A model generated the notes under the pieces. The model did not search any database. It worked only from the letters and a program-made list of their open reading frames with translations, and was not told where the DNA came from. From contig WJMJ01000018.1 of the NCBI GenBank assembly GCA_014728035.1, forward strand, positions 1 to 64,000: a stretch of 64,000 nucleotides of DNA, in the 5' to 3' direction. This DNA is from Promethearchaeota archaeon (lineage in GTDB: Archaea > Asgardarchaeota > Thorarchaeia > Thorarchaeales > Thorarchaeaceae). Positions 19,212 through 59,395 of this stretch are shown piece by piece. Each line of letters opens with the position of its first letter. Position 1 is the stretch's first letter. Made by a program: the position numbers and the translations under genes.

Positions 19212-19213
19212 CT

Positions 19214-38586: not shown

Positions 38587-38597
38587 ATCATATCACC

Positions 38598-40109: not shown

Positions 40110-40540
40110 TAGCGAAACCTCCGTCCTCGCCATTCTAAAGGTTCACGGTCAAGGGTGGTAATCTTATCTGGTCCATAGAGTAAATCTTCACGTTCTCCTT
40201 CGCTGATATCAACAACTTTCGTGTGATAGAGTGCTTCAAATCTACAAGCTTGAACACAGAGCCCACAGAATATACACCGGGTATAATCAAAGTACAATGC
40301 AGCATCTTTCTCATACTTTTGATCAGCTGTGTCAATTGATATAGCTACAACCGGACATGCACGAACACACTGTTTGCATGCTGTACAATTCTCTCTGACA
40401 TGAATGTGTCTACCACGAGTCCGTTCAGGATAGTCTCTATCTTCGAAGGGATAGAAGTAGGTGAAGGGTCTCTTGAAGATCTGTCTGAATACATTTTTAA
40501 GTATTTGAAATATATCACCTAGCGTTGAGAAGAATCCCAT
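40109..40540 (-). CDS. nuoI: Complex I-like 2[4Fe-4S] subunit I
   Basis: T..YP.E...RTRG, CTACKQCVRACP and CIFCGLCVQAC; ATG 40540 with GGAGG RBS. Confidence 0.9.
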   Translation of the reverse strand: MGFFSTLGDIFQILKNVFRQIFKRPFTYFYPFEDRDYPERTRGRHIHVRENCTACKQCVRACPVVAISIDTADQKYEKDAALYFDYTRCIFCGLCVQACRFEALYHTKVVDISEGEREDLLYGPDKITTLDREPLEWRGRRFR

Positions 40541-40545
40541 TATTT

Positions 40546-41676: not shown

Positions 41677-41684
41677 AATCACTC

Positions 41685-42818
41685 CTATCTGTCCCACCAA
41701 CCTGGGTATGGATCTAAACTTCCGAATATCACAATGAAATCAGCAAACTTGTTTCCAGGAACAAGATGCTTCAACGAATAATATGAGTTGAAACAAGGGC
41801 CTCGTATTTTTGCTCGATAGGGTGTTTGTGATTTATTCATTGTGCGAAGATACAGAGAAGTAATACCACGAGTACCTTCCACACGTCCATACGCTTCTCC
41901 TTCTGGAAGACGATTTGCTTTTCCACGTGCTTTGGGGTTGTATATCTCACCCTCTGGAAGGAGTGGAAGTAGTTGACGAATAATCTCTACCGAGGTTTCG
42001 ATTTCCTTGAATCTCTGGACCATCCGATCATAAGAATCACTTTCTCCAGGATGCTCCTTGTTAACATATGTTGGAACCTCCCAGTCCACCATGTCATAGG
42101 CTAAGTTCTCGTCAGGTGAATCTTTTCGAAGATCCATTGGAACACCACATGCACGGATATTTGGACCGCTTAATCCCCATCGCAGTGCTTGATTTGTGGT
42201 GAATTGTCCAATACCTCGAGTTCTTACTTTGAAGGTTGGACTTCGTAATAACATATCCCGAAATTTTGGCATCCGATCTTCTAACCGTTTCACTGCTCTA
42301 TTCAGTTTCTTTAGAAATTTATCAGTGAAATCATACTTGACTCCGCCAGGTGTATTGTAAGATACCGCATGTCGTGAGCCAGTTAATTCTTCAAAAGCAT
42401 CAAGGAAAAATTCTCGATCCACCCAGGGCCATAGAAGCATAGTGAATAAACCAAGTTCTGCTGCAAATTGCCCCCACCAAAATTGTAGACTATGAATTCG
42501 ACTAGCCTCCATCATGATAGTACGCATTACTTTTGCTCGTTCAGGAATGTCTATACCGGCTATTCGCTCTACAGCTGAAACATATGGATATTCTGCTAGA
42601 AACGCCTCTAGCATGCAAAGGCGTTCCATAATGAGCGCACCTTGTCTGAAATTCCGAAACTCAAGACACTTCTCTGCAGAACGATGGAAGTATCCAGCAT
42701 TGGGATCACATTCAACAATATAGTCCCCAACTAGTGTGAGTTTGGCTGCCCAACCATGAGCTGAAACGTGTTGAGGACCGAACCAGATCTCAGTAGCTTC
42801 TTCAAGTACGTCCTTCAC
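41685..42818 (-). CDS. nuoD: Complex I-like subunit D (no NiFe site)
   Basis: FGPQHVSAHG, GYFHR, SGPNIRACG, EGTRG and terminal SLD...DR; no CxxC pairs. Confidence 0.9.
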   Translation of the reverse strand: MKDVLEEATEIWFGPQHVSAHGWAAKLTLVGDYIVECDPNAGYFHRSAEKCLEFRNFRQGALIMERLCMLEAFLAEYPYVSAVERIAGIDIPERAKVMRTIMMEASRIHSLQFWWGQFAAELGLFTMLLWPWVDREFFLDAFEELTGSRHAVSYNTPGGVKYDFTDKFLKKLNRAVKRLEDRMPKFRDMLLRSPTFKVRTRGIGQFTTNQALRWGLSGPNIRACGVPMDLRKDSPDENLAYDMVDWEVPTYVNKEHPGESDSYDRMVQRFKEIETSVEIIRQLLPLLPEGEIYNPKARGKANRLPEGEAYGRVEGTRGITSLYLRTMNKSQTPYRAKIRGPCFNSYYSLKHLVPGNKFADFIVIFGSLDPYPGWWDR

Positions 42819-43336
42819 CTGTTAGCACCTCCATCTGATGTAGTTGATTTGACCTCAGTCTCTTCTAACCTACTTCTATCAGTCTTGAAACTCTTTCTTA
42901 AGGGGTACTTTCCCTCTAGTTCTTCTGGAAGTAACAATAATCGTAAATCAGGATGTCCTTCGAAATATACTCCAAACATCTCATGTGTTTCTCGCTCATG
43001 CCATTCCATTCCAGGAAAAATATCAGAAATACTTGGAATAGTTGGTGTATCTACTGGAAGAGGGACACGTATCTGGCATAGAACCTGATTTGAATGTGAC
43101 CAGAAATAATAGATAACTTCGAATCCTGAATCCTCCAGATCCACTCCAAGTATTGTTTCAGGAAAGAGGTCAGAGTACGCAGCATCTAACATCTTCACTA
43201 TATCAACGATGTATTCTGGTGAGGTATCAATTTGAACTGTCTGGAAGCCTGCGGTGCGAGCCTCAATCCCCTTGAATTTTTGTTTCAGCTCATGCACCAA
43301 TTGAGCTCCAGAAATTCCACCCTCAGGGTTAGACAC
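42815..43336 (-). CDS. nuoC: Complex I-like subunit C
   Basis: WHERETHEMFGVYFEGHPDLR and YPLRK; GTG 43336 preceded by AGGAGG. Confidence 0.9.
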   Translation of the reverse strand: MSNPEGGISGAQLVHELKQKFKGIEARTAGFQTVQIDTSPEYIVDIVKMLDAAYSDLFPETILGVDLEDSGFEVIYYFWSHSNQVLCQIRVPLPVDTPTIPSISDIFPGMEWHERETHEMFGVYFEGHPDLRLLLLPEELEGKYPLRKSFKTDRSRLEETEVKSTTSDGGANR

Positions 43337-43649
43337 TTCGAGTTTCCTCCTGATGAATTGTTTGTCCAAGATCCACTGTTCCATACCGTCGATGATACAT
43401 AAGCATCAGAACCATTGCTAAAGCGGTATGAGCTGCTGCGATAGTGATGATGAGAATAGTTAGGCCTTGCCCAGTAAACGTGAATGGTGTATTATACAAT
43501 GCAAAGGCAATGAGAGCGATTGTTACACCATTGCCAATAATTTCAGCACCGATGAGTACACGAATGAGGTTTCGTTTAACCATCATTCCATACACACCTA
43601 ATCCTATCAGCATAAATGACAAGATCAGATACCATGACATTGGAATCAC
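43329..43649 (-). CDS. nuoK: Complex I-like subunit K
   Basis: GLGVYG..KRNLIRVLIGAEI; 3 TM helices. Confidence 0.88.
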   Translation of the reverse strand: MIPMSWYLILSFMLIGLGVYGMMVKRNLIRVLIGAEIIGNGVTIALIAFALYNTPFTFTGQGLTILIITIAAAHTALAMVLMLMYHRRYGTVDLGQTIHQEETRSV

Positions 43650-44260
43650 TCTTCATCATCTCCTTTAATCTCAGAGTACCCTGGATGAGTTACAGCTTCG
43701 ATTCCAAACTCTCCTTTGATAGGTTCTAGACGTTCAGCCTTTTCCATCTTCATAATTACCACAGCACCAACAAGAGCAGTCAGAATAATTAGCGCACTCA
43801 TCTGAATATAGATACCATGACCACCCCATAACCATTGAGCTAGACCCTCAAGACTCTGAGAGAGGTCTATATTCTCTATTGCAAAGCTTTCAGGCCATGG
43901 AAAGAGAAGAGCAAGAGTACCGGATAAGATCATCACAATAGTTGCAGTAAGAATGCCCAGTTGTTTTGCACGAGATGTTGGAAACACCTCCAATGTACTA
44001 TCTTGAGCTCGTGGCAATAGTAGAACAGCAAAAATAATCAATGCACTGATGCCGCCAGTATAGACTGCGATCTGCATCCCTGCAATGAATGGTGCTTCTA
44101 GGAGCAAATAGAAACCTGCAACAACTGACGCCATAATTCCGAAAAAGAATGCTGCATAAACAATATCTTCATGTTCCAATGCAAGATATGCAAGGATTAG
44201 CACTAAACCTGCAAGTAGCAAAAACTCAACTTGTTCAAAGAGGGTCTCAATTCCTTGCAT
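43646..44260 (-). CDS. nuoJ: Complex I-like subunit J
   Basis: LEAPFIAGMQIAVYTGGI; 5 TM helices. Confidence 0.88.
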   Translation of the reverse strand: MQGIETLFEQVEFLLLAGLVLILAYLALEHEDIVYAAFFFGIMASVVAGFYLLLEAPFIAGMQIAVYTGGISALIIFAVLLLPRAQDSTLEVFPTSRAKQLGILTATIVMILSGTLALLFPWPESFAIENIDLSQSLEGLAQWLWGGHGIYIQMSALIILTALVGAVVIMKMEKAERLEPIKGEFGIEAVTHPGYSEIKGDDEE

Positions 44261-44710
44261 TTAGTCTACCTCCCTCTGCATAGATGCTTCACTTTCAGCT
44301 TTTGCTTTCCGATACAATTCAACCGTTTCTTTCCCTGAAAGAAATGTTTCTGGAAGCCTTCGTATTGCATACCAGATTCCGAACATGAAAATTGCAATAA
44401 AGATAATCGATTGCCAAACCGCAAATTCAGTAAGACGTAATGAGGAACTTGAAAGCAACCAGAGGAATGCTCCCAATACATCAACCACTAAGAACAGAAT
44501 TGTATAGGTAAGATAGTTATATGGAAAAGATATTCTAGCTGGACCAATGGGTTCCTCTCCACACTCATAGGTGGAAGTCTTTTCAGAATTCTGAAGTACA
44601 TGTGGCCGTAATACCCATGAAGCGAATAACATCACGATAACAAGAACCGCTGCTAGTAATCCCCAGACTAATACCGGAATGAAGTCTATGAAGAGCCTCA
44701 CTATTTCCAC
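44261..44710 (-). CDS. nuoA: Complex I-like subunit A
   Basis: K..TYECGEEP loop; 3 TM helices. Confidence 0.9.
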   Translation of the reverse strand: MEIVRLFIDFIPVLVWGLLAAVLVIVMLFASWVLRPHVLQNSEKTSTYECGEEPIGPARISFPYNYLTYTILFLVVDVLGAFLWLLSSSSLRLTEFAVWQSIIFIAIFMFGIWYAIRRLPETFLSGKETVELYRKAKAESEASMQREVD

Positions 44711-45272: not shown

Positions 45273-46280
45273 CTATCTATCATTGTTCATTGGTGAGAAT
45301 TGTACAATTGCCCAAGTAACATGGGTAGGAATTGCAGGAAGCGCATCAATCTTAATCTCGAAGATTTCGCTAGATGCGGTTGGTTCAATAAACGAATCCT
45401 CCTCGAACAAAATAGAAGTCTCAAAAAATGATGCAGACATATCTTCAAGTCTATTTTTGAATCCAAATTCCAGCTCGTATTCCTCAAGGATTTCTGCGTT
45501 CTCATCTTCATTATCTGGAAAGAAATAGGTTAGAAAGTAAGCTACTCCATTAAGACACCTTTTCAGTTCCTTGAGAAATTCTTCACTTTGTGTGATGTTA
45601 GTTAGACCGAGATTAGTTGTGAAAACCCCAATTGATCTATCTTTGAAAGGCATTTTTTTAGCATCAAATGCAATCAGACTTACTTTGTCATAAAGTCCAA
45701 AATGTTCTAATCGTTCCTTATTTCTCTGAAGAATACTTGGACTGATATCACTCAGAATAACAGGATTATCCAGCTGTGAAAACATTTCTGCAAATCCACC
45801 CATCCCAGAAGCAATATCGATGATTACATCACTTTTGTCAGAGAGCAATTTTTTCAATTGTGCTTTTTTCTTCTGATACGCCAGATTATAAGAGTCAGTA
45901 TAAATCTCCACTTCAGACCGTATTTCCTCCGCTCGATCATAATCTCCTCTTTCATCAAGAATCATTGAACGTAGGAATTTATCTGCAGGATTCAAAGTTG
46001 ATAAATCACTCTGCATGAGTTTTTCTTCATACTCAGAATTGGTATCCAATGCCTTTGCGAGGTTACTTTGTACAACTCTCCAGAAATCAGCATCGTTTGA
46101 AACATCTAGAAGAAAGACAGCAATTCCATCTTTTACAAAATAATGAGTATCACATTCACTACAAGAAACCTCAGCCTCGATAATTCTGTTTTCTGTTTCG
46201 GTTTGGATACTCCATTCTAAATCATTATGGCACTGAGGGCAATAGAATAGTGTCTGAATGGATTTTAGCATGATTCTCAA
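45273..46280 (-). CDS. Trm112-like Zn domain fused to class I SAM methyltransferase
   Basis: CPQCHNDL...CSEC..YFVKDGI N-terminus; IIDIASGMGG, LSDIS and FDAKKMPF. Confidence 0.8.
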   Translation of the reverse strand: MRIMLKSIQTLFYCPQCHNDLEWSIQTETENRIIEAEVSCSECDTHYFVKDGIAVFLLDVSNDADFWRVVQSNLAKALDTNSEYEEKLMQSDLSTLNPADKFLRSMILDERGDYDRAEEIRSEVEIYTDSYNLAYQKKKAQLKKLLSDKSDVIIDIASGMGGFAEMFSQLDNPVILSDISPSILQRNKERLEHFGLYDKVSLIAFDAKKMPFKDRSIGVFTTNLGLTNITQSEEFLKELKRCLNGVAYFLTYFFPDNEDENAEILEEYELEFGFKNRLEDMSASFFETSILFEEDSFIEPTASSEIFEIKIDALPAIPTHVTWAIVQFSPMNNDR

Positions 46281-46734: not shown

Positions 46735-47235
46735 TCAACCCGGTAGCGATTTCTCATCATTTTCTTTAAGTATTTCTTGCGCGAGTTCACCATAGATATC
46801 TTCACGAGTTGATAGCCAAGTTAGAAATCTTTCAAATTCACCTTCAGGTGCACTCCATTTTGGATCGTTCAGATATTCCTGAAGATACTCAAGTCCCTCT
46901 CTGGGACTCATATTTTCAATCGCTTCCATAAATCCATCAAATGAACTGACATCTCTATGAACCATCACACCTATCATCTGAATATGTATGAAAAAAAAGC
47001 CCATCAAAATCAACAATAACAAATTAATGCTTCCGAACACTTCAATCCAAAATGGACTACCAGACATAAGAACAGCAGCTCTTGTAGATACTATAAGAAT
47101 AGTTACTGACAACATCCAGAAGATGAAGAACAACAGTCGGACACTAATTTGAGTATCATAATACTTTACAATTGATAGATATGCTAAGAAGGCTAGAGAA
47201 AAAAATGAAACAATAATGCCAATAACCTCTAACAA
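46735..47235 (-). CDS. Hypothetical membrane protein (3 TM plus acidic domain)
   Basis: Hydrophobic N-half; TTG start after GAGGT. Confidence 0.6.
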   Translation of the reverse strand: MLEVIGIIVSFFSLAFLAYLSIVKYYDTQISVRLLFFIFWMLSVTILIVSTRAAVLMSGSPFWIEVFGSINLLLLILMGFFFIHIQMIGVMVHRDVSSFDGFMEAIENMSPREGLEYLQEYLNDPKWSAPEGEFERFLTWLSTREDIYGELAQEILKENDEKSLPG

Positions 47236-47399
47236 TCATACATACCTCATCTGCAATTCTAAGGATAATGAAATAAATTATCAATTATTTCAAAATTCCG
47301 ATTTTGCTTAATTTGGTTTCAAATAAAGGACCAAAATATCCTAGATAGATAAAAAAGCAGAAATGAAACAATTAGAATGTTATACTCAATCATGGAATA

Positions 47400-49259
47400 T
47401 TGCCGAGTGAATTGTCTATGAGTATGAGAGATAAATTTCAGAAAGTCAGAAGTAAGAAATTATTCAATGAGATTAAAGAACATATGATTATGGGCCAATT
47501 CAAAGATGCACTTGAGAAAATCAATTCACTTGACGTGCAATATCTTCCTGATTCTGAGCAAGTTGAACTAAGAATTGAAGCTTGGAAGATAATGTGCATC
47601 ACACGTCAGGGCAAGTACCAAGAAGGATTGAAACTTGCTGATGCGTTTATTCAATCTTGTGTAGAAGAAGAATTATGCAGGGAACCTATTCTTGACACAA
47701 TAATTGCAAAATCCTATTCATATAGTGCACTAGGAAAGATAGATGATGGTTTGGATATGTGTAAAAAGGCTGAACAAATCCTCAAGAATCTCGACCTGAC
47801 AACAAGAGAAAATCGAGCACGTTTGGCGAGCGTTTTGACAATCCAAGGATTAAATGCATTACATCAAGGAGACCTTGAATTAGCAATTGAGATATATTCA
47901 CAGAGTTATCCAATTCTAGATGAACTTGGAAACAAGAAAAGTGCTTCCGCAGCACTACACAATATAGGCAGTACATACCGAGTAATGGGAGATCTTGATA
48001 GAGCTCTAGAATACGTTGAAATGTCGAAAGCAATTTCAGAAGAAATCGAGTACATTCCGAACCTAGCTGGTGCATACACCACAACTGGAATTATCTTCTA
48101 TCAAAAAGGGCAACTCGAAAAAGCATCGGATAATCTCGATAAAAGTCTAGAGATGTTCAGGGATATCGGGCATAGAGTGTATCTGGCCAGAGGTCTATAT
48201 TATGCAGTGGTGATTGCTGTTGCTCAAGAAGACTTGAAGAGAGCAGATGAATATCTGAATCAGATGAGCGCAATTAACAATGAATTGGATAGCCTTCTCA
48301 TAAGTCAGCATTACCGTGTAGCAAAAGCATTATGGCACAAATCTAAGGGAGAACCAACGGATTTGCAAATAGCCCACGATCTTTTCGAACAAGTTGTGAA
48401 TGAGAAGATTACTTTCTTTGAGGTTACATTTCAATCACTGCTCAGTCTAAGCGACCTTCTCTTAGAACAAATGAAATCTTCAGATAGCGAAGAACACATG
48501 GGAAGTATCAAAGAGTATGCTGAGATGGCTCTTGAGATTGCAGTTAGTCAAGGTTCTCATTGGCTTGAAGCTGAAACTTACTGTTTACAAGCACAAATAG
48601 CTTTGATTGAGATAGACTATGAGAAAGCTAAACAGTTACTAACCAAAGCCCAACTAATTGCAGATGATAAGGGATTACATCAGTTAGCTAGAAGAATTTC
48701 CAAGGAATTTGACGAATTGCTTAGGAAAGAAGAGAGATGGACAGAGATTAGCAAAAGTGGAGCATCAGTTTCAGAAAGACTAGAAATCGCTCAGATAAAT
48801 GAACGAGTAGAAAGGATGGCGAAAATCCAAGAGGCTGTTACACCAGATGAAGAAAAAGATCAACCAATTCAGTTCATGCTTCTTTCAGCTCATGAAGGAT
48901 ACTGCATTGTTTCTAAAGAATTCGAGACATCCTTTAAGGTAGACGAGTCCCTTGTGAGTGGATTTCTAAGTGCAATTACAAGTTTCAGTGATGAAGTTTT
49001 TTCATTACCACTTGATAGAATTAAAGTAGGCGAATTTATCTTACTCTTTAGAGCCATTATGCCCTTTCTGTTCTGCTATGTATTCAAAGGAGAGTCTTAC
49101 TCAGCATTGAAGAAAGTAGAACAAATAATCGAATATCTAAAAGAGGATGAAGTATTATGGATGTCTTTACGTGAAACAATAGAATCTGGAAAACTTAATA
49201 ATCAGGTCAATCAGGAAGTGCAAAGAATTGTTACCGATGTATTCCAGATAGTTGCATAA
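47400..49259 (+). CDS. TPR-repeat protein with C-terminal longin-like domain
   Basis: TPR units (ALHNIG..Y..GDLDRALEY). C-terminal LVSGFLSAITSFSDEVF...LDRIKVGEF resembles Asgard longin-like domains. Confidence 0.75.
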   Translation: MPSELSMSMRDKFQKVRSKKLFNEIKEHMIMGQFKDALEKINSLDVQYLPDSEQVELRIEAWKIMCITRQGKYQEGLKLADAFIQSCVEEELCREPILDTIIAKSYSYSALGKIDDGLDMCKKAEQILKNLDLTTRENRARLASVLTIQGLNALHQGDLELAIEIYSQSYPILDELGNKKSASAALHNIGSTYRVMGDLDRALEYVEMSKAISEEIEYIPNLAGAYTTTGIIFYQKGQLEKASDNLDKSLEMFRDIGHRVYLARGLYYAVVIAVAQEDLKRADEYLNQMSAINNELDSLLISQHYRVAKALWHKSKGEPTDLQIAHDLFEQVVNEKITFFEVTFQSLLSLSDLLLEQMKSSDSEEHMGSIKEYAEMALEIAVSQGSHWLEAETYCLQAQIALIEIDYEKAKQLLTKAQLIADDKGLHQLARRISKEFDELLRKEERWTEISKSGASVSERLEIAQINERVERMAKIQEAVTPDEEKDQPIQFMLLSAHEGYCIVSKEFETSFKVDESLVSGFLSAITSFSDEVFSLPLDRIKVGEFILLFRAIMPFLFCYVFKGESYSALKKVEQIIEYLKEDEVLWMSLRETIESGKLNNQVNQEVQRIVTDVFQIVA

Positions 49260-49373
49260 TAGAAGGCATTGTAGGATAAACTTGAGAAATTAGTAATTTC
49301 TCATAACAAGGCTTATCCTTTTCTTCCCAATAGATATTCTGAATCTTTGTACATGCCTTGTGGTGGTATTGTA

Positions 49374-51365
49374 ATGTTTCATATTTCAAAAAAAATAATT
49401 CTTTATTCTATTCTAACATTAATGATATGTCAGCCCATTATTCCTATTGATAAAACAGGAACCTACTCATCTGTATCTACCGATACTCCACCTTCTAGCA
49501 TCTTTGTAGAGAACATTCTAGAAGATCCATCTCTAGATTCTGAACCCGAAGTTGTAATAGAAGGCGATTCTGGAGAATTTTCATATGTCTACCATAAGGC
49601 AGATGATGAGAACGATTTCAATCATATGAACCTTACATGGGAGCACAGCTCAGGTAATGAGTTAGATTTTAGAACGGGAGGAAATGAAGCGATGCCAGAC
49701 TATTGGGATTTCATCTACTTTTATCAAGAATTTGAGTGGCAAGATAACGAACTTCCATTAGATGCAACTCTTCATCTAAATTATAATATCAATTCAACTG
49801 GTTCATTTGTTTTAGAAAATGGTGGACAAAACACTTTTCGGTGTTATGTGTGGTTAATTGATTCTTCAGAAAATTGGATAATGCTTTACGAATCGTTTCC
49901 ACCCTATATTGAAGAGTATCAACAAAAAGAATATTATCTGAATTACTTCCAAATTAGGGATGCCTGGGGAGGGACCATTGAAGATAGTAGTGGGGAACAA
50001 GAAGATCCTTCAGACACAGTTAGATTTGCAGTTGGTTTAGCACCAGAATATTATGAAACATATCCATTTGACGATTTCAATGGGTCTGTGACCTTGAGTA
50101 TTAGAGAAATGAAGTTGTTCACTTATATGAAAACAGAACCTACAGAATCAGATATTCTTGACCCCATATATAACACAACTTGGCATTATCCTCCTGAGAA
50201 TGTATTCCCAGATATCTCGAACGAATATAATGAATCCTTGATGGATTTTAGGGATCTAACAATTGCGGATGATGGATTTGTATATGTCTTATGTCAAGCA
50301 CGCAATACCTTCGATCTATATTCCACTGGAAGGTCTTATTCCTACCAGATCCTGATGAAATACTCTCCAGAACTTGAACTTGTATGGACATCACGGAATG
50401 CAAATCTAACCTACGGATTTGACATAATTACCTATGATGGATTTATTTACACAACAGGGAATAAATGGAATCCATCTCATAGTTCAAAAGACCTATTATT
50501 TACAAAATGGTCCTTAGAAGGAGAGAAGGTTTGGGAAACCCAATGGGGTACATTCCATGATGAACTGGGAATGAGTATAGGAGTATCAGAGGACGGAGGA
50601 TTCTATGTGTTAGGAGGGCAATACAATCATACACTGGAACCAATGTTGGATAGATCAGTATTCCTAAAATTTGATTCTTCAGGTTCAGTAGAATGGAATA
50701 ATACTAACGAATTTCCTGCACGCGGTGGAAATTACGAAATTTTTATGGTGTCTGATGGTATATTTTGGGGGCCCAGTTATATCATGAAACTAGACTTCAA
50801 CTGTGAACAAGTATGGAATATTTCTACATTCCACTATAAGTATTGGGTGGATAATGCAGGCGACTTGTATACAATTAGGACTAGTACCGCACCTGATACC
50901 AATATAGAGGAACTCAATGTTACCAAATGGGAATCAAATGATGAAATTGAATGGAGTTCAAATTATTCATTAATTTACAAAGATGGCAGAAGTGATAATA
51001 TCGAGGGTCTGGATATAACTGTTAACTCAGCTGGTGATGTCTATGTTTTGGTTTTGGGTCGTAGTCTTAGCTGGGATAATCATCTCTTGAAGTACAATCA
51101 AGATGGAACCCTTATGTCCGACAAATTAGTCTGTCCGGAGGTTGATGAAGCAATGCTGTGGCAGACAACGAAGATGATGTTAAAAGAGAATGGAGTGCTA
51201 TATATTGGATACACTGAACTATGCTCTAAGGGGATAAAGTTAGAGGCGTATGTGGCTGATCAAGAATTATTCGACCAAGGATGGATAATTCTAGTAATTA
51301 TTGCAATCATCGGAATAGTGTCTGTTGCTTTGCTCCTAATTATTTACCAGACTAAAATACGATAA
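49374..51365 (+). CDS. Secreted, membrane-anchored beta-propeller protein
   Basis: Signal peptide; repeats of D/G-x-x-Y-V...L-x-K-Y/W...G...W; C-terminal TM plus basic tail. Confidence 0.75.
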   Translation: MFHISKKIILYSILTLMICQPIIPIDKTGTYSSVSTDTPPSSIFVENILEDPSLDSEPEVVIEGDSGEFSYVYHKADDENDFNHMNLTWEHSSGNELDFRTGGNEAMPDYWDFIYFYQEFEWQDNELPLDATLHLNYNINSTGSFVLENGGQNTFRCYVWLIDSSENWIMLYESFPPYIEEYQQKEYYLNYFQIRDAWGGTIEDSSGEQEDPSDTVRFAVGLAPEYYETYPFDDFNGSVTLSIREMKLFTYMKTEPTESDILDPIYNTTWHYPPENVFPDISNEYNESLMDFRDLTIADDGFVYVLCQARNTFDLYSTGRSYSYQILMKYSPELELVWTSRNANLTYGFDIITYDGFIYTTGNKWNPSHSSKDLLFTKWSLEGEKVWETQWGTFHDELGMSIGVSEDGGFYVLGGQYNHTLEPMLDRSVFLKFDSSGSVEWNNTNEFPARGGNYEIFMVSDGIFWGPSYIMKLDFNCEQVWNISTFHYKYWVDNAGDLYTIRTSTAPDTNIEELNVTKWESNDEIEWSSNYSLIYKDGRSDNIEGLDITVNSAGDVYVLVLGRSLSWDNHLLKYNQDGTLMSDKLVCPEVDEAMLWQTTKMMLKENGVLYIGYTELCSKGIKLEAYVADQELFDQGWIILVIIAIIGIVSVALLLIIYQTKIR

Positions 51366-51506
51366 AATAGTATTAAAAACAGTAGAATAATGAATGAAAT
51401 GATGATTTGCAATTTAGTTCAAAGAATCATTCTTCCTAACAATGATGAGAATTCATGTCTATTGCTAAGTTAATATATGAAAGCGTCCTTCAACAATGTG
51501 ATTAAA

Positions 51507-51794
51507 ATGCCAAAAGTTTGTTCAGAATGTGGAGATGCGATTCCTTCGGCAACAGCAAAACATCTTCAAAAACAGAGGTCTGACGACCGACTGGTCTGTC
51601 CTAAGTGTGTAAGCAAGCTTATCAAATCAAAAGAGTTGCATCACCCGATGTGTGAAAAATGTCGTGAACCAATAGATCCAGCTCTGCTACAAGCATATGC
51701 GGTATCAGGTCATAATGAGAACATGCCCTCATTCTGTGAGAAGTGTGGCAAGAAGGGCTCACCAAAACTTCCACCAAAACGTTTGTATGATTGA
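51507..51794 (+). CDS. Small zinc-finger protein (4 CxxC)
   Basis: CSEC, CPKC, CEKC and CEKC. Confidence 0.7.
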   Translation: MPKVCSECGDAIPSATAKHLQKQRSDDRLVCPKCVSKLIKSKELHHPMCEKCREPIDPALLQAYAVSGHNENMPSFCEKCGKKGSPKLPPKRLYD

Positions 51795-52109: not shown

Positions 52110-52565
52110 CTAGTTTTCTGGAGGATATCTAGATGCATCTTCTTGCAACATACCTGAGGTTGTAGATTCTTCAAGAGTAGGCATGATAGAAAATCCAGCT
52201 GCTATGAAAAGAGCACCACCAACCCCCCAGGAAACCAAGAATAGGGCATCAGAGAATGTTACTGTACCATCGAGAGGGGGCATAAGCAATACGACAATAA
52301 ACATCATTGTAGCTATGACACCGGAGATTGCTAACATTGTTGGTTTTATTTTGCTCCTTTCTGGTTTGAGATACCCACCCAGACTAAAAATGAGAATTAA
52401 TGGTGCAGAGAGCAACCATGCTAGAAATGGAAATCTTTCCAGAATGTAACCAGGATTTGTGACCTCCAGATAGAGAAAATTGAAAAAATACGTGCTGAGG
52501 AGTAGTACACCTAACCAAAGAATGCAATATGATTCGCTGTCTTCTCTTAGTTTCATGATACACAC
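52110..52565 (-). CDS. 4-TM membrane protein directly downstream of the FAD-oxidoreductase-NuoB gene
   Basis: Abuts the upstream stop codon; four hydrophobic segments. Confidence 0.65.
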   Translation of the reverse strand: MCIMKLREDSESYCILWLGVLLLSTYFFNFLYLEVTNPGYILERFPFLAWLLSAPLILIFSLGGYLKPERSKIKPTMLAISGVIATMMFIVVLLMPPLDGTVTFSDALFLVSWGVGGALFIAAGFSIMPTLEESTTSGMLQEDASRYPPEN

Positions 52566-54512
52566 CTATGACAAGATACCTAACGCATCCTGATTTTCAT
52601 TCTTCATTTGCCAGTGAGTTGTTCCTGCTCTGATCTTATTCTGAAGAATCAGATGTGCTCGTATGAAATCTGAAGGCTTTGGCGGACAACCAGGTAGGTA
52701 AACATCAACTGGCACTACTTTATCTGGGGGAGTCATAAGTGAATATCCATCCCAAAATAGACCACCACTTGCAGCACATTGTCCAAAAGATATGACGAAT
52801 TTAGGCTCGGGCATTTGTTCGTAAATTCTTCTTAGACGGGGTGCCATCTTCTTCGTTAAACTACCCGATATCCACAGTACATCAGTCTGGCGAGGTCCAA
52901 ACAATGGAAGCATACCAAATCGTTCTACATCCCATCTGGATGCAACTCCAGCAGCACCATCAACCATACAACATCCAAGACCATATTGCACAGGCCATGG
53001 ACTATGAGCTCTCCCCCAGCGAAGAAGCCACTTTATTGGAGGTACGTTCTGAAACCACTTTAACAGAATCGGTGCAATCCTTCCAAATCCATTTCTAAGA
53101 AAATCAAAAGCAATCCACATGAAGTACTTTCCAATTCGAAGAATGAATGGAAGCCAATAAGCGAATATCTTCCCTGGATTCGATATTTCCTTTGGGTCAA
53201 ATTTCAATTTTGCACTTCGAATTCTGGCTAGTCTTTTCTTACCAAAGTATTCAGGAGCATAATTGGCAAACCATATTCCTGTAGAGTGGGCATGACCACC
53301 ATGCCGCTGTGCAATCTTGAAAATGACAAAACTCTGAGCCCAAGAAAGCATATAGAATCGTCTTCGTTCATCTTCCAAAAAATAACCCATCATCGTGACA
53401 CCTGCTTTAGATGTCACGTAACCATCCACACCAGCTTTAGCAGAGGCTTGTTCAAATTGAAAATCATCCAAGATTGCGTGAAGATTCTCAAGTGGAGCAA
53501 AGGCCTGACCAACAACGAGAGTGGGACCCGCCTTTTTGATCTTCATTGGATAGAAACGATCTTCCCATTCATGCTCCGCAACATGACGATCATAGATAGT
53601 TCCATGATATTCTTCAGTGACCTCACAAACAATTCGTAAACCAGCTTTGCGTTCATCCTCATTTCCATCAAAAGCAAATACAACAACACAGTGATGAACA
53701 GGGTAGGGGAAGGGTTCCTCCTCTTCCCATATCTTCTTCTTGAGATCAACATACTTGCTCTCTTTGAATTTGATTGTGTGAGGAATGGGAGCTTCTTCTA
53801 TTACCTTTTCAATAGCCATATTCATCAAATAATTTTCAGGAAAACTCACTACAATAGGGTCTATTGGAGTTAGAGGTTTACACTTCAGTTTAACCTTGGT
53901 AATTATTCCCAGAATTCCTTCTGTATCGCAAAATAGATCACGTTCTTTTGTCCTAACAATTTTTCCAGTAGGAAGAACAACTTCAAACTCAAGAACGCTG
54001 TCGTTAACAATACCGTATTTTAGTGAGCCAATACCATCTCCACCTTGTGCCACCCAGCCACCAATCGTAGCTGAAAGACCTGATGAGGGGTAGCATCTAA
54101 GATCGAGGTTTTGACGGTTTAGTTCATGTTGTAGATTTGCCCAAGATATACCAGGTTCTGTCCAGACCCATTCTTCTTCTGTATTGATTTCGAGAACGGC
54201 ATCCATCTCACGCATATCTACAATTATTCCCCCTTTCCGGGGAATAGCGCCTCCGTAGCCTGAGGTTCCTGCTCCCCGAGGTACTAATGGAATTTTCTCA
54301 TCATTAGCAAATTTGTAAAGAGCCTGCACCTCTCGAGGAGTTCTAGGACGCACTAACGCATCAGGGGTATTATTCATCAACCAGCCTACTTGTTTCGGAA
54401 GAGATCCGACATCTTGAGAATGGATTATAAGCTCGTGCTTTGCTGTAACTACACGACCTTGGAAAATCTCCAGAAGATTTTCAATCTGTTTATCCTTTAA
54501 TCCCATTAGCAA
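52566..54512 (-). CDS. Fusion of GlcD/D-lactate dehydrogenase-type FAD-linked oxidoreductase (N-term) and NuoB (C-term)
   Basis: FAD domain: PRGAGTSGYGG, PSSGLSATIGGW, TEGILGIITK, FDP...NPGK. NuoB domain: SPWP..YGLGCC, PRQTDVL..SG, YEQMPEPK.VI..GQCAASGG, PVDVYLPGCPPKP. One continuous frame. Confidence 0.9.
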   Translation of the reverse strand: MLMGLKDKQIENLLEIFQGRVVTAKHELIIHSQDVGSLPKQVGWLMNNTPDALVRPRTPREVQALYKFANDEKIPLVPRGAGTSGYGGAIPRKGGIIVDMREMDAVLEINTEEEWVWTEPGISWANLQHELNRQNLDLRCYPSSGLSATIGGWVAQGGDGIGSLKYGIVNDSVLEFEVVLPTGKIVRTKERDLFCDTEGILGIITKVKLKCKPLTPIDPIVVSFPENYLMNMAIEKVIEEAPIPHTIKFKESKYVDLKKKIWEEEEPFPYPVHHCVVVFAFDGNEDERKAGLRIVCEVTEEYHGTIYDRHVAEHEWEDRFYPMKIKKAGPTLVVGQAFAPLENLHAILDDFQFEQASAKAGVDGYVTSKAGVTMMGYFLEDERRRFYMLSWAQSFVIFKIAQRHGGHAHSTGIWFANYAPEYFGKKRLARIRSAKLKFDPKEISNPGKIFAYWLPFILRIGKYFMWIAFDFLRNGFGRIAPILLKWFQNVPPIKWLLRWGRAHSPWPVQYGLGCCMVDGAAGVASRWDVERFGMLPLFGPRQTDVLWISGSLTKKMAPRLRRIYEQMPEPKFVISFGQCAASGGLFWDGYSLMTPPDKVVPVDVYLPGCPPKPSDFIRAHLILQNKIRAGTTHWQMKNENQDALGILS

Positions 54513-54690: not shown

Positions 54691-55914
54691 ATGGAATTTC
54701 CTTCACTAAAGAAACATGGATTAGATATCAACGCATTTACCTGTGCACAATGTAGTTTTTGCCAAGTGGGTCACGGAGCTTGTCCTACATACAAGGTAAA
54801 ACGTGTCGATAGCTACTCAGGGAAAGGTAAAATGCTAATCACTCGAGCATTAGCACAAAAGCGAATCAAAGAGAAGGAAGGTCTCCCGGGACTACGAGAT
54901 GCCATATTTGGATGCACCCTTTGCGGAGGATGCGAAGAAATTTGCCAAGTAGATATTCCGTTCGTAAAGATATACCAATTGATGCGGTCAGATTTCAAAG
55001 ATTTAGGAATGTGGCCTGAAGAATTGGAAGATGCTAAAGCAACTCTCACAAAGTCACGAAATATCCAAGGGCAACCACAAATGGACAGAATTGAAGGGTG
55101 GTCTTATTGGCATCCAGATGAAGATTATCTTCTGGATCGAGAAGGTGTGAAAAACAAAACTGCTTTCTTCTTGGGATGCGCTTCTTCATTCAAAGCAGTT
55201 CCAATTCAAGCCTCCATTGCCACAGCTATGATCATGGAGAAAATTGATGAGGAGTTCACCATGTTGGGGGAGGAGGAGTGGTGTTGCGGAGCCCCCCTAA
55301 TCATGACTGGGGATTTTGAAGGAGCAAAAGAATATGCAATGCATAACATCCAAAAATACCAAGAGCTAGGTGTTGAACGCATTTTCACGAATTGTCCGGG
55401 TTGTTACAAGATGTGGGCTCATGAGTACCATGAATTTCTGGGAATTGAGCATGAATTCGAAATAATCTACGGTGCAGACTTTTTCATGCGTTTACTTGAC
55501 TCTGGCAAATTCAATAATATCAGTAGCGATTACGAGGCAACAATTACATTCCACGACGGATGTGACGCGGGTAGAAATGCAGGTTTCTATGAGGAACCTC
55601 GAAAGGTACTGGAAAATTTACCGGGGATTACTTTGGAAGAATTACCTCATAATAAAGAAAATTGTTATTGTTGTGGTTCTGGTGGAGTTTTACGAGCTAT
55701 CGATAATGAATTTGCATTGAGTATAAACCACCTTAAGGTAGAAGATATCGAACAGACGAATACAGAGATAGTTGTATCTGCATGTCCTTCTTGTGTAGAC
55801 TTCATGCACAATCAACTCCCAAGTGCAGGCTCAGAAAAAGCTTCAATGGATCTTGCAGTAATAATAGCAAAATCGTTAGGTCTTGAGTGGGATGGATTAG
55901 ATGAAGTATACTAG
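54691..55914 (+). CDS. GlcF/HdrD-like Fe-S oxidoreductase (2[4Fe-4S] plus two CCG domains)
   Basis: CAQCSFC...CP and CTLCGGCEEIC; FLGC/WCCG/CPGC and HDGC/CCGSGG/CPSC. Confidence 0.88.
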   Translation: MEFPSLKKHGLDINAFTCAQCSFCQVGHGACPTYKVKRVDSYSGKGKMLITRALAQKRIKEKEGLPGLRDAIFGCTLCGGCEEICQVDIPFVKIYQLMRSDFKDLGMWPEELEDAKATLTKSRNIQGQPQMDRIEGWSYWHPDEDYLLDREGVKNKTAFFLGCASSFKAVPIQASIATAMIMEKIDEEFTMLGEEEWCCGAPLIMTGDFEGAKEYAMHNIQKYQELGVERIFTNCPGCYKMWAHEYHEFLGIEHEFEIIYGADFFMRLLDSGKFNNISSDYEATITFHDGCDAGRNAGFYEEPRKVLENLPGITLEELPHNKENCYCCGSGGVLRAIDNEFALSINHLKVEDIEQTNTEIVVSACPSCVDFMHNQLPSAGSEKASMDLAVIIAKSLGLEWDGLDEVY

Positions 55915-55915
55915 T

Positions 55916-57019
55916 CTAATCCATGAATGATCTAATGTTAGATAGAATAGCTAGAAAGAGAGTCACTAGTAGCACAATCTCCCATGGAATCATTAAGCCT
56001 ACCAATAGATAGGATAGACAAAGAAGAATTCCTGTCAGCATATGGTTCTGAATAGTTCCTGCATTTGCAGGTACGAGTTCTGGAATATCATTATGGCTGG
56101 ATAAACATATCATTGATGATTTGACAGCTAAAGGAACGGTTACTAGAATGAGAAGAGTATGAAGTTGGACAAGCCCAAAAATTACTCCAATAATTATTGG
56201 AAGGTACGTTGCCGCCATGATTACAACATATCCTTTCGCAGCTCTTTTTCTTCCTAATCTTACAACCAATGTTTTCTTTTCTGCATCACGGTCTGCATCA
56301 TGGTCAGGAAATTCATTAATATAAAGAACGGCCATAATTAGAAAAGCAACAGGTAATGAAGCAATAATTGGTTCTAGTAATTCATAAACCAGCAGAAGAG
56401 GTATCGACATTATCGGTTCTTGAAGAATATTCTGAATTTGAATAGGATATTGTACATAATAAGACCCAACCACCATCAATGTTCCGAAATTCAATGCGAT
56501 GAAGAATTCTCCAATACCTCTAGTTACCAACCGAAATGGTGGAGCAGTATAAAAGAAACCACTTCCAATACCAACAATACCTAGAATAAGAATGAATACA
56601 CCAAGTTGCAAAAACAGATAGATACCGATACTTGCTCCGATTGCGAAGAAAACTAGTGAGCCGGATAGAACCTCACGAGGAGATAAGAATCCTTTCTGAA
56701 TCATTCTACTACCTCCAGTATAAGGCCGAATGAATTCTTTGTTGATATCATCAGAACCAGTCATATCCGTAGTATGATCAAAATAATCGTTGGATACATT
56801 CGCACCTATATGTAGACAAATTGCAGCAATCAGAGTTAGAAGAAAATAATCAAGCCTGAAAACAGAATGGAGACCCCATGCAATAGCTGCTCCGAGAAAC
56901 ACAGGGATAGTTGAAGCAGTTAGAAATGGTGCTCGAAGTTCGATTAGCCATGCTTTAATCTTTCCAGGATGCACCTCATCTACATCTGGGATATATTCGT
57001 CTTCAGTCACAGGAATCAA
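55916..57019 (-). CDS. menA: 1,4-dihydroxy-2-naphthoate polyprenyltransferase (MenA/UBIAD1, UbiA family)
   Basis: LRAPFL, NDYFD, FYTAPP...GIGE and NEFPD..AD....KKTL.VRLG. Confidence 0.85.
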   Translation of the reverse strand: MIPVTEDEYIPDVDEVHPGKIKAWLIELRAPFLTASTIPVFLGAAIAWGLHSVFRLDYFLLTLIAAICLHIGANVSNDYFDHTTDMTGSDDINKEFIRPYTGGSRMIQKGFLSPREVLSGSLVFFAIGASIGIYLFLQLGVFILILGIVGIGSGFFYTAPPFRLVTRGIGEFFIALNFGTLMVVGSYYVQYPIQIQNILQEPIMSIPLLLVYELLEPIIASLPVAFLIMAVLYINEFPDHDADRDAEKKTLVVRLGRKRAAKGYVVIMAATYLPIIIGVIFGLVQLHTLLILVTVPLAVKSSMICLSSHNDIPELVPANAGTIQNHMLTGILLCLSYLLVGLMIPWEIVLLVTLFLAILSNIRSFMD

Positions 57020-57126: not shown

Positions 57127-58185
57127 TTGGAGGATAAAACTCAGAACCGGCCGCATCATGATGCATCAGATAGTGGTGGTCTGAGTAAGGAAGTACTACA
57201 CCATGATAAGGCGTTTCAAACATTATATAGACATTCTGGCCTTATTGAACGAGCAAGCAAGATTGAAAAGGCAATTCAAGATTTCATTCAAGAAAATATG
57301 GGGCAGCCTGAAATTCTCTATCAAGCAGCAAATCATCTTATTTTAGCAGGAGGAAAACGAACACGTTCACTTCTATCCTTGTTAGCTTGTGAAGCCGTAG
57401 ACGGAGATATTGAGAGAGCCCTTCCACTCACCATTGCAGCCGAGCTTTTACAAACAGCCTCACTGATTCATGATGACATTATTGATGCAGGAACAACTCG
57501 TAGAGGTGTTGAAGCTGTACATGAAAAATACGGAGATCACATCGCAATTCTAGCGGGAGACCTACTGATAGCAAAAGCGATAGAGATGATTGGTGAACAT
57601 GGAACAACTGAACTTCTACGTCATATTGGAAACGGTGGCGTTAGAATGTGTGAAGGAGAAGCCATCGACCTAGCATTAAGCACCGAAAAACCAAATGTGT
57701 ATTCTAAAGACCAATACTTTAAGATGATCGAGCTAAAGACAGTAGCATTTCTTAGCGAGTCAGCAAGATTAGGAGCTATGATGGGAGAAGGAAATGAAAA
57801 GCAAGTTGAAGCACTCTCAGAATTTGGTGAATATCTAGGATATGCATTTCAGATTCAAGATGATGTACTGGACTTGAGAGCTTCAATTGAAGAAATCGGG
57901 AAATCTCCATTTGCAGACCTAAAGACAAGGAGAAGCAATTTTCTTCTGGTTCATTCTCTAGAAACATCTGATAATTCTACAAGAAAATCAATCTGTGATG
58001 CTCTTGATAAAGGTCAATACGAACAGGCAGCGAATCTAGTTTTTGCTACAGGTGCCGAGGAAGAAGCAAAAAAGATTGCTAAAGAATACGTTGAGAAAGC
58101 CAAAAAAGTATTGAAAAAAGAAGAGTTGCAAAAAATCGAGTTACTCTTTGAGTTTGCAGATTCAGTTGTATCGCGTCAAAGATAA
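57127..58185 (+). CDS. trans-Polyprenyl diphosphate synthase, probably medium/long chain
   Basis: GGKR, ASLIHDDIID, RRG, KT and FQIQDDVLD. Confidence 0.9.
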   Translation: MEDKTQNRPHHDASDSGGLSKEVLHHDKAFQTLYRHSGLIERASKIEKAIQDFIQENMGQPEILYQAANHLILAGGKRTRSLLSLLACEAVDGDIERALPLTIAAELLQTASLIHDDIIDAGTTRRGVEAVHEKYGDHIAILAGDLLIAKAIEMIGEHGTTELLRHIGNGGVRMCEGEAIDLALSTEKPNVYSKDQYFKMIELKTVAFLSESARLGAMMGEGNEKQVEALSEFGEYLGYAFQIQDDVLDLRASIEEIGKSPFADLKTRRSNFLLVHSLETSDNSTRKSICDALDKGQYEQAANLVFATGAEEEAKKIAKEYVEKAKKVLKKEELQKIELLFEFADSVVSRQR

Positions 58186-58198
58186 TTGCTTTTCTTTT

Positions 58199-59395
58199 TT
58201 AATCTAGTATCTTCATTAAAGGGACAATAATTTTCGATCCTAGTAAAACTGGAAAAGGTAACCTACATCGGATTAGCGGCTCAAGTAGAAAGGGGCCTGC
58301 TATTCCCATACTCAAATGTGTAATCAAATCGTTCGAGAGTATCTTATCTGCAATCTCACGAACCTTAACCGCATCAAATAATGTCTGCCCCATTTCTCTT
58401 TTCCATCGAATCTCGTAGTTTGATAATGAAGAAGAAGTATCCATCGAATCGATTATTGATTCGGCCGCAATTTCACCTCCAATAATAGCAGTAGGAATAC
58501 CTCCACCATTTGAAGCCATAACATGACCTGCTGCATCACCAACTAAGAGGGTGTTTTTTGTTGCTGTTATAGAAGCTGGGCCACCAATAGGAATGAGAGC
58601 TGATACTGAATGTTTCAAGGATGCATGCCTCATACATGGTTCAATCAATGGATTTCGCTTCATGAGATTCTTTAAGAAAACACGTAGAGGAAGACTCCGT
58701 TCATTGTAGAACTGCCTTAAGCCTAAGCCTAAATTCACTGACCCACCTCCTTTGGGAATAATCCATGCATATCCTCCAGGTGCAACCTGTTGACCGAAGT
58801 ACATCTCAGTTACAGACTGGTCACAAGCTGTGTCATCTAGTACGAATTGAATCGATTGACTAAATTGTGAATTAGAATGGAAATTCCCAATTGATTGGGA
58901 AATGATTGATTTGGGCCCATCAGCACCAACTATATATTTTGCAGCGAGCTCTTTAGTTCCTCGATTAGTCTTTACTAACAACCGATTCGATTCACTCTTT
59001 TCTAACACCCGAAACTGCAAATGTAGCTCAGCTCCTTGTTCAACTGCTCTTTTGACCAAGTGTTTGTCAAATCGAGCCCTATCGATGATATTTGCATTGA
59101 ACCTGAAACGCGTAATATTACCTCGTGGTGAAATCAAATGAGTCCAGTAAGTTCGATTAGTAATCAATTTGTCTGGAATGGTGGCAATTCGCTTCGCTCT
59201 TGGTGAATTAGGGAAGATATCTGAACATTCTCCCGGAGTTGGAAAATATTCTCCGCATTGTATAGGCATCCCAATTTCTTTTCTACGATCTAATAGCCCC
59301 ACTCTAATGTCATTCTCTGAAAGTATTCGAGCAGTAGTACTTCCAGCAGGTCCAGCACCGACGACTATTACGTCGTAGTCAATCTTTGCCATCAA
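58199..59395 (-). CDS. Geranylgeranyl/prenyl reductase family flavoprotein
   Basis: GAGPAGS, CGE, DRARFD, GADG, PGGYAWIIP and VGDAAG...GGGI. Confidence 0.88.
   Translation of the reverse strand: MMAKIDYDVIVVGAGPAGSTTARILSENDIRVGLLDRRKEIGMPIQCGEYFPTPGECSDIFPNSPRAKRIATIPDKLITNRTYWTHLISPRGNITRFRFNANIIDRARFDKHLVKRAVEQGAELHLQFRVLEKSESNRLLVKTNRGTKELAAKYIVGADGPKSIISQSIGNFHSNSQFSQSIQFVLDDTACDQSVTEMYFGQQVAPGGYAWIIPKGGGSVNLGLGLRQFYNERSLPLRVFLKNLMKRNPLIEPCMRHASLKHSVSALIPIGGPASITATKNTLLVGDAAGHVMASNGGGIPTAIIGGEIAAESIIDSMDTSSSLSNYEIRWKREMGQTLFDAVKVREIADKILSNDLITHLSMGIAGPFLLEPLIRCRLPFPVLLGSKIIVPLMKILD

Follow-up and report, generated by a model that had tools for sequence, protein, structure and literature searches.

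A flavoenzyme fused to the NuoB subunit of a headless complex I-like pump is conserved in Thor-type Asgard archaea

The stretch of DNA analysed here comprises positions 1 to 64,000 of contig WJMJ01000018.1 (assembly GCA_014728035.1) from a Thor-type Asgard archaeon, and "the window" below means this whole stretch of 64,000 nucleotides. On its minus strand, between positions 54512 and 52566, the window encodes a polypeptide in which a flavoenzyme with FAD-linked oxidase domains continues without interruption into NuoB, the subunit that holds the iron-sulfur cluster N2 of complex I. The original prediction, made from the sequence alone, had proposed such an in-frame fusion with an aromatic amphipathic linker between its two parts. 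The gene and its parts were delimited as follows:

52566-54506, minus strand: fusion gene encoding the flavoenzyme, its amphipathic tail, and NuoB (646 aa when read from the ATG at 54506)
53949-54365, minus strand: FAD_binding_4 domain, aa 50-188 of P0001, Pfam score 132.8 bits
53166-53816, minus strand: FAD-oxidase_C (cap/substrate) domain, aa 233-449, Pfam score 44.3 bits
53022-53165, minus strand: aromatic amphipathic segment, aa 450-497, recognized by composition, hydrophobic moment, and predicted helices
52569-53021, minus strand: complete complex-I-type NuoB domain, aa 498-648, recognized by matches to solved chains, NCBIfam, and cysteine motifs

The open reading frame was free of stop codons from 54512 to 52566 and amounts to 648 aa if counted from the TTG at 54512. 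The ATG at 54506 is the likely start of the gene, because all orthologues have a length of 646 aa and the codons of 11 of them can be aligned one to one from this position onward. The Pfam search returned FAD_binding_4, FAD-oxidase_C, and Oxidored_q6 (PF01058), the last at aa 525-619 with 83.1 bits against a gathering score of 27. The AlphaFold2 model of the fusion protein had a mean pLDDT of 85.7 and a pTM of 0.72.

A protein search retrieved approximately 45 clusters with 73-90% identity, nearly all of 646 aa and most with all three Pfam domains. The assemblies behind the fused clusters came from NCBI, JGI, ENA, and Logan under the label Thorarchaeota, and their contigs measured up to 3.16 Mb. 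Among 87 species genomes of the class, the full-length, stop-free fusion was present in more than 50, belonging to genera g1-g12; the closed 3.16-Mb Thor chromosome CP070761.1 also encodes it. Rather than being consistently split into two genes, the orthologues in g1-g12 are fused. All 11 orthologues compared, from 11 other genomes, had exactly 646 codons, the same frame and domain order, and no indels. Relative to these orthologues, 64% of the changed codons in the FAD domain, 66% of those in the linker, and 87% of those in the NuoB domain were synonymous, and the synonymous changes were evenly distributed over the fusion junction. The NuoB domain was the most conserved portion of the protein (major-residue frequency 0.925). 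In the alignment of the fused sequences, no conserved methionine able to start a separate NuoB was found between aa 465 and 516, which rules out an internal start. Judged from these comparisons, the fusion is natural and fixed in one clade of Thor-type Asgard archaea, and the uninterrupted gene predicted from the letters alone was thus borne out. Public records name the fusion protein "NuoB," "subunit K," or "hypothetical protein." In genome G024 (C5:93250-95186), the fusion gene lies in two overlapping frames with a break at approximately aa 431-437, within FAD-oxidase_C; this split represents either a frameshift error or a pseudogene.

The C-terminal part had been described as a complete NuoB starting near position 53033, with the tandem cysteines of complex I rather than the CxxC of hydrogenase small subunits, and the comparison with solved structures and the cysteine motifs agreed with these statements. 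The segment aa 493-630 matched the solved PSST/Nqo6/NdhK chains of complex I with 140-146 bits, versus 105 bits for MbsJ (MBS), 95 for MbhJ (MBH), and 86 for HycG (formate hydrogenlyase). The domain also passed the NCBIfam models NF005012 (178.4 vs 116) and TIGR01957 (171.1 vs 142.7). All four ligands of N2 were present, namely the tandem C514-C515 in GLGCCM, C579 in GQC, and C609 in PGCPP, and they were kept in the fused sequences aligned. Where the small subunits of group-4 [NiFe] hydrogenases have CxxC, the fused domain has CC; the hydrogenase-type paralogue in the same genome has GSCNGCD. Over their full length, the last 150 residues align with NuoB/Nqo6/PSST (NDUFS7)/NdhK, and they share the tandem-Cys, GxC, and PGCPP motifs. 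Unlike these subunits, the fused domain is preceded by a flavoenzyme and tail of 497 residues and is encoded outside the usual A-B-C-D operon order.

Other NuoB fusions were surveyed among the 150 nearest representatives of 1.84 billion proteins, together with word-sharing proteins of 356-1134 aa. In this set, NuoB was joined only to NuoA, NuoC, NuoC-D, or NuoD, apart from an intein-containing MbhJ, and no enzyme domain besides the flavoenzyme was found attached to it. The known NuoA-B, NuoB-C, and NuoB-C-D fusions likewise join NuoB to a polypeptide of the same machine; they differ in that they link neighbouring core subunits. Of the proteins consisting of NuoB alone, the closest shared 60% identity and had the tandem Cys; its gene comes after a nuoA (46% identity) on a short contig from a metagenome. 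A metagenome protein of 533 aa (P0123) had two stretches of Oxidored_q6 and shared 54% identity with the fused NuoB domain; it may be a tandem or duplicated NuoB.

The same strand of the window carries a complex I-like operon:

33353-44710, minus strand: nuoA-J-K-C-D-H-I-M'-L-M-N, with A to M' recognized by Pfam and L, M, and N assigned from the list of open reading frames and homology to a related operon in the closed genome

Neither nuoB nor nuoEFG was found by Pfam in this operon, and a fourth antiporter-like gene (M') sits between nuoI and nuoL. The genome (4.33 Mb, 98% complete, 8.5% contamination) yielded six Oxidored_q6 matches, the fusion included. Another of them belongs to a second cluster, located at C103:76959-84879 in the order NuoA-B-C-D-H, whose NuoB is the GSCNGCD paralogue and whose NuoD carries RICGIC and DPCFSC. 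Because a CxxC small subunit is combined there with both NiFe motifs in the large subunit, the sequences identify this cluster as a true energy-converting group-4 [NiFe] hydrogenase. The four further Oxidored_q6 proteins are longer (274-317 aa), and one of them lies within the window at 17590-18363. Since the other complex-type NuoB is of the CxxC type and stands beside a NuoD with NiFe motifs, the fused domain is the sole tandem-Cys NuoB found in the genome, with three of the six Oxidored_q6 matches examined, and hence the only NuoB recognized for the B-less operon.

The two loci co-occurred at the level of genera. The operon NuoD (73-91% identity) was found in g1-g12, and none of the 15 genomes of g13-g16 had it; these genera likewise have no fusion and carry only the hydrogenase-type cluster. 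In CP070761.1, the genes follow each other in the order CCG (an iron-sulfur protein gene, divergent), fusion, a small transmembrane gene, a 116-aa gene on the opposite strand, and NuoA-J-K-C-D-H-I-M'-L-M. In all six of the 11 further loci that reach that far, nuoA lies 0.5-0.9 kb past the unit formed by the fusion and the small transmembrane gene. The NuoD of the B-less operon (41685-42818, minus strand) has RLCMLE where NdhH has RWDYAA, lacks the quinone-binding Tyr, and has the C-terminus DPYPGWWDR, without CxxC. Its best solved match was MbsL of the P. furiosus sulfane-sulfur reductase MBS (203 bits), which has RICVPE at this position.

The segment between the two enzymes had been predicted to be rich in W, F, and R, amphipathic, and helical, and its properties fit this description. 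F, W, and Y make up 27% of aa 450-497 versus 11% of the whole protein, and the highest helical hydrophobic moment of the protein falls in this segment (0.61; mean 0.22, SD 0.12). A transmembrane linker was ruled out by the low hydropathy, the maximum Kyte-Doolittle value of a 19-mer being 1.25, under the transmembrane level. The AlphaFold2 model placed helices at 453-474, 476-488, and 491-502 with moderate confidence (pLDDT 63-66). Among 46 fused sequences, 19 of the 48 linker positions were invariant, and the major-residue frequency was higher in the linker (0.87) than in the FAD domain (0.83). Across the 11 orthologues, 62% of the linker codons differed, with the proportion of synonymous changes given above. 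These values argue that the linker is under purifying selection.

The origin of the linker is seen in genus g14, where a complex I-type operon was absent and an unfused orthologue of the flavoenzyme (498-499 aa, 57% identity) was found. This protein terminates with ..FPPLKW(I/L), which aligns with NVPPIKW just ahead of the NuoB start WGRxxSPWP. Because the unfused orthologues end exactly at the junction, the linker is the flavoenzyme's own ancestral C-terminal tail, presumably a membrane-binding one. The g14 gene lies downstream of a 65-66%-identical CCG gene and adjoins the same MenA-like, prenyl synthase, and geranylgeranyl-reductase genes that are described below for the window. More distant paralogues of the flavoenzyme are of two kinds, proteins of 573 aa that end in a true hydrophobic tail and proteins of 870-1050 aa in which the flavoenzyme is joined to Fer4/CCG domains. 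Solved structures of complex I have the NuoB N-terminal helix at the boundary to the membrane arm, beside NuoH and NuoA. Given this membrane-proximal N-terminus and the amphipathic character of the linker, its helices would lie on the membrane surface and hold the flavin module near the quinone entry, by analogy with the solved enzymes.

The label "FAD-linked oxidase" stood in part. The FAD_binding_4 and FAD-oxidase_C domains were confirmed, and the FAD part has the fold of D-lactate dehydrogenase (D-LDH), AGPS, and D2HGDH (Foldseek TM-score 0.82-0.85, normalized to mouse LDHD); the metal site of GlcD/D-LDH was missing. The His/His/Glu motifs GHxGDGNxH and EHGxG were absent from the flavoenzyme and all its close relatives; the fusion protein itself has GYVTSKAG (within GYVTSKAGVTM) at aa 364-371 and GGHAHSTG at aa 405-412 in their place. 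The score against the GlcD equivalog TIGR00387 was 140.3 bits versus a cut-off of 567.9, and that against PRK11230 was 83 versus 897. A plain D-lactate or glycolate dehydrogenase was ruled out by the missing metal site. Because the metal triad of the D-lactate, glycolate, and D-2-hydroxyglutarate dehydrogenases is absent and the GlcD score is far under the cut-off, we assign no substrate to the flavoenzyme.

Divergently from the fusion, the window encodes an iron-sulfur protein of the CCG type:

54691-55914, plus strand: GlcF/HdrD-like Fe-S (CCG) protein, Pfam Fer4_8 and two CCG domains

Its sequence combines a pair of ferredoxin-type CxxCxxCxxxC motifs with two CCG domains, both complete with their five cysteines; every cysteine of these motifs was invariant in 101 sequences. 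It reached no equivalog cut-off (best TfrB, 150 vs 385), and JGI names many of its orthologues HdrD. In the relatives, the CCG orthologue adjoins the fusion or lies 2.7-4.4 kb off on the same contig. A complex of aa 1-500 of the fusion protein with the CCG protein was predicted with an ipSAE of 0.89, versus 0.00 for the best of three controls. The mark used for this score is reached by 58 of 80 solved complexes and by 2 of 110 mismatched pairs, and is a rough one, with our own alignments used. The prediction runs shared at least 95% of contacts, and the pLDDT of the CCG protein was at least 89. In the predicted interface, the ferredoxin-like N-domain of the CCG protein (aa 13-88) lies on the FAD-binding domain, and the linker is not involved. 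We know of no similar solved FAD/CCG complex; if one exists, the high score may reflect likeness to it. The model thus predicts that the FAD part binds the CCG protein, and the pairing is independently backed by the existence of single-chain FAD+CCG relatives.

The two-component architecture and the fold are those of the GlcD/GlcF glycolate oxidase, Dld-II, and the LdhAB-type D-LDH, in keeping with the predicted FAD/CCG contact and with the single FAD+CCG polypeptides of 870-1050 aa among the flavoenzyme's relatives; the archaeal Dld and LldEFG context is described elsewhere (PMC3949148). Unlike those enzymes, the present flavoenzyme is without His/His/Glu and EHGxG and is tied to NuoB. Upstream of the fusion in CP070761.1 (L011:1-9808), three FAD_binding_4 proteins and three Fer4/CCG proteins were observed, along with an amine-oxidase-like flavoprotein and two PNPOx-like proteins. 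Many relatives have paralogous flavoenzyme/CCG pairs 10-30 kb from the fusion.

The genes for a putative prenylated electron carrier lie in the same part of the window:

55916-57019, minus strand: MenA-like prenyltransferase, just over the TIGR00751 cut-off
57127-58185, plus strand: polyprenyl synthase, Pfam/NCBIfam
58199-59395, minus strand: geranylgeranyl-reductase family protein, Pfam/NCBIfam
45273-46280, minus strand: UbiE/MenG-like methyltransferase with scores under the family cut-offs, encoded between the nuo operon and the fusion

In the relatives, the MenA-like gene is usually on the contig of the fusion. No cytochrome bd and no quinol-handling subunits of the NrfD or NarI/HdrE type were found in the 98%-complete genome; two molybdopterin enzymes are encoded, and no membrane partner was recognized for either. 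CCG proteins such as GlcF, GlpC, and SdhE pass electrons to quinones. Because the bd, NrfD, and NarI/HdrE subunits were not found, the pump and the CCG-type enzymes look like the only recognizable carrier-linked enzymes of the genome; therefore, one of them would have to reduce the carrier and the other to oxidize it.

The reading towards which we lean, with slightly better than even confidence, is that the fused NuoB belongs to a headless pump and that the flavoenzyme/CCG module is moored at the foot of the complex I-like enzyme and coupled to it through a carrier. The C-terminal domain would be the sole N2 subunit of the headless nuoA-J-K-C-D-H-I-M'-L-M-N pump. The N-terminal part would be a membrane-peripheral flavoenzyme paired with the divergently encoded GlcF/HdrD-like protein, its amphipathic C-terminal tail having been turned into a linker. 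Because the NuoB N-terminal helix lies at the membrane interface near NuoH and NuoA, the fusion would anchor the flavoenzyme/CCG module to the surface of the membrane, at the base of the peripheral arm and close to the quinone entry. The two enzymes would then exchange electrons via a locally made prenylated carrier and not through the Fe-S chain of NuoI, a route favoured because CCG proteins like GlcF, GlpC, and SdhE deliver electrons to quinones. Such a pair would amount to a hard-wired supercomplex of two enzymes.

The preferred direction of electron flow, which we hold weakly, would be from the substrate to FAD, to the CCG protein, and to the carrier. The pump would then use the proton gradient to lift electrons from the carrier to ferredoxin by reverse electron transport. 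According to our own estimate from standard potentials, this lift would be approximately 0.37 V, and the extra antiporter-like subunit could help to pay for it; the group-4 hydrogenase or CO2 reduction would re-oxidize the ferredoxin. Almost as likely seems a flow in the opposite direction: ferredoxin would reduce the carrier with pumping, and the carrier would feed the flavoenzyme module, which would act as a reductase. More tentatively, and with more doubt than confidence, the fusion and its HdrD/GlcF-like partner could be regarded as a new redox head of a complex I relative, one that would couple the oxidation or reduction of an organic substrate directly to the proton gradient. In one form, this head would serve a syntrophic life through a gradient-driven lift to ferredoxin with five proton channels.

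Several points weigh against a carrier-coupled module moored at the pump. The thermodynamic argument for the electron direction is speculative, and the position of the FAD/CCG module with respect to N2, NuoI, and the quinone tunnel is drawn by analogy. Neither MqnA/D of the futalosine pathway nor MenD and a true MenB of the classical pathway were found in the 98%-complete genome. Because the NuoD is without the quinone Tyr and MbsL-like, its acceptor site appears non-canonical and the acceptor of the pump may be other than a quinone. Furthermore, the fusion and nuoA are set apart by an insert of 8-10 kb with other genes in this genome (about 8 kb) and its congener (G026).

Other explanations of the locus were weighed against the same evidence. 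We regard it as unlikely, if worth serious attention, that the module is wired directly into the pump as an input head; the flavoenzyme/CCG pair would replace NuoEFG or FpoF, and electrons would run from the substrate via FAD and CCG to NuoI/N2 and a membrane acceptor, so that the whole would be a proton-pumping dehydrogenase of an organic substrate. This is consistent with the operon being without NuoEFG, with the covalent link of the flavoenzyme to an Fe-S subunit of the chain, with the predicted binding of an Fe-S protein to the FAD part, and with the further flavoenzyme/CCG pairs by the operon in the closed genome. However, the attachment is at the N-terminus of NuoB, on the membrane side in solved complex I, far from the entry cluster of NuoI, and the linker is an old membrane-binding tail that makes no contact with the CCG protein in the model. 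Couples of the 2-hydroxyacid type would also be underpowered for a pump whose proton channels number four or five, and the unfused orthologue in g14 works without this pump. It is likewise unlikely, and we would give it little weight, that the module is an output, with ferredoxin feeding NuoI, pumping, and transfer from N2 through the CCG protein and the flavoenzyme to a soluble acceptor such as a disulfide or oxo-acid, with no need for a pool of free quinone. The HdrD-like character of the CCG protein, with its two complete CCG motifs and the JGI naming of many orthologues, agrees with such a scheme, as do the MbsL-like NuoD without the quinone Tyr and the fact that no head-group pathway was found; a model with an Fpo-like complex and HdrD has been published (PMC7374477). 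Nevertheless, the MenA-like prenyltransferase, prenyl synthase, and reductase are conserved in the same island, which favours a lipid-soluble carrier, and flavoenzymes of the D-LDH fold are normally dehydrogenases. A thiol cofactor system did not come to light in this genome either, though no search was aimed at one.

The remaining alternatives deny any electron exchange within the fused protein, its membership in the pump, or its existence. A fusion that ensures only 1:1 synthesis or membrane targeting, or that is cleaved after translation into its halves, would agree with the occurrence of the halves as separate proteins elsewhere (the unfused flavoenzyme of g14 and the standalone NuoB after nuoA). 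Yet 19 invariant linker positions of 48 and a constant length in 11 orthologues would be unexpected for a disposable or cleaved spacer, and there is no conserved internal Met for a separate NuoB; thus, we consider this improbable. That the flavoenzyme recruited the NuoB-like domain as an Fe-S domain for its own use, outside the pump, is more improbable again. Nothing specific speaks for it, apart from the fact that co-option of domains occurs in the superfamily, and an intact, conserved pump operon would be left without any NuoB; moreover, the NuoB part is the most conserved (0.925; 87% synonymous) and has complex I features over its full length. An artefact, whether a chimeric assembly, a frameshift, or an overlooked stop codon, has a negligible probability. 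Nothing speaks for it; in the two-frame gene of G024, the break is inside the FAD domain rather than at the junction. The identical fused gene occurs in independent NCBI, JGI, ENA, and Logan assemblies on contigs of 0.5-3.2 Mb, and the even run of synonymous changes across the junction, together with the conservation, already refutes a chimera.

What feeds or drains the headless 11-subunit relatives of complex I in anaerobes and archaea is a long-standing question. Partnerships proposed earlier, such as that of the Fpo-like complex with HdrD, were inferential, and a clade-wide fusion is hard genetic evidence of attachment to the N2 subunit. In Methanomassiliicoccales, a headless Fpo-like complex and HdrD were proposed to act as a ferredoxin:heterodisulfide oxidoreductase (PMC7374477). 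Both there and in the window, an HdrD-type CCG protein is the proposed partner of a complex I-like pump that has no NADH or F420 head. The methanogen association differs in being inferred and not genetically fixed, in having no flavoenzyme, and in using the heterodisulfide of methanogenesis as acceptor, whereas the fusion described here is genetic evidence of physical attachment, in a non-methanogen. As with NuoEFG and the FpoF/FqoF N-modules, a flavoprotein module is added to the conserved 11-subunit core. Those modules dock distally, at NuoI/NuoG, and pair NADH or F420H2 with FMN or FAD as the flavin, whereas the module here is attached at the membrane-proximal N-terminus of NuoB and has an FAD domain of the VAO/PCMH type. 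Thor-type archaea are not known to be methanogens.

The operon also resembles that of the "2M" complex I of Nitrospira and others in having an extra antiporter-like gene between nuoI and nuoL. Papers on Nitrospirota tie enzymes with a second NuoM to an altered pumping stoichiometry; unlike the present case, those systems are not known to have a flavoenzyme-NuoB fusion. No description of the fusion was found in the searchable literature, which omits most subscription journals, and a preprint on Asgard complex I and hydrogenases does not mention it. Thus, the locus apparently encodes a conserved, undescribed relative of complex I with a new covalently attached accessory redox module. The lineage figures in arguments on how the archaeal ancestor of eukaryotes obtained its energy, and the fusion offers a concrete protein, a junction peptide, and a two-protein module for study.

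Directly downstream of the fusion lies the small transmembrane gene mentioned above:

52110-52565, minus strand: P0002, approximately four transmembrane helices, no known family

Its likely start is the ATG at 52556. In each of the 11 related loci, the gene after the fusion encodes a homologue of P0002 (30-70% identity), and in most of them the two genes overlap by 4 nt. The protein had no Pfam or NCBIfam match, and the protein atlas was uninformative. The insert between nuoA and the fusion (46735-51794) contains a minus-strand 166-aa open reading frame without a Pfam match, followed by three plus-strand genes encoding a 619-aa TPR protein, a 672-aa product that Pfam did not recognize, and a double zinc-ribbon protein of 105 aa. 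The gap between the fusion unit and nuoA in G026 is of similar size; in most other genera, nuoA comes directly after the fusion unit. A promoter motif common to nuoA and the fusion was rejected, as the best ungapped 21-mer in the window matched at 14 of 21 positions, no better than shuffled sequence. The only element common to the two upstream regions was a TATA-like core, TTTTTATG, at approximately -56 and -116.

Two observations were made on the hydrogenase genes. The group-4 hydrogenase on C103 is located directly downstream of two genes for 2-hydroxyglutaryl-CoA dehydratase D-components and of a BcrAD/BadFG-type activator gene. In the window, the minus-strand region 16313-20290 comprises the Oxidored_q6 small subunit at 17590-18363, a 425-aa open reading frame at 16313-17590, and two more co-oriented open reading frames. 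The neighbours at the corresponding place in a related genome encode Fer4, NAD_binding_1/DHODB, and NiFeSe large-subunit proteins, the last being the counterpart of the 425-aa open reading frame, and the region is likely a hydrogenase cluster of the group-3 type.

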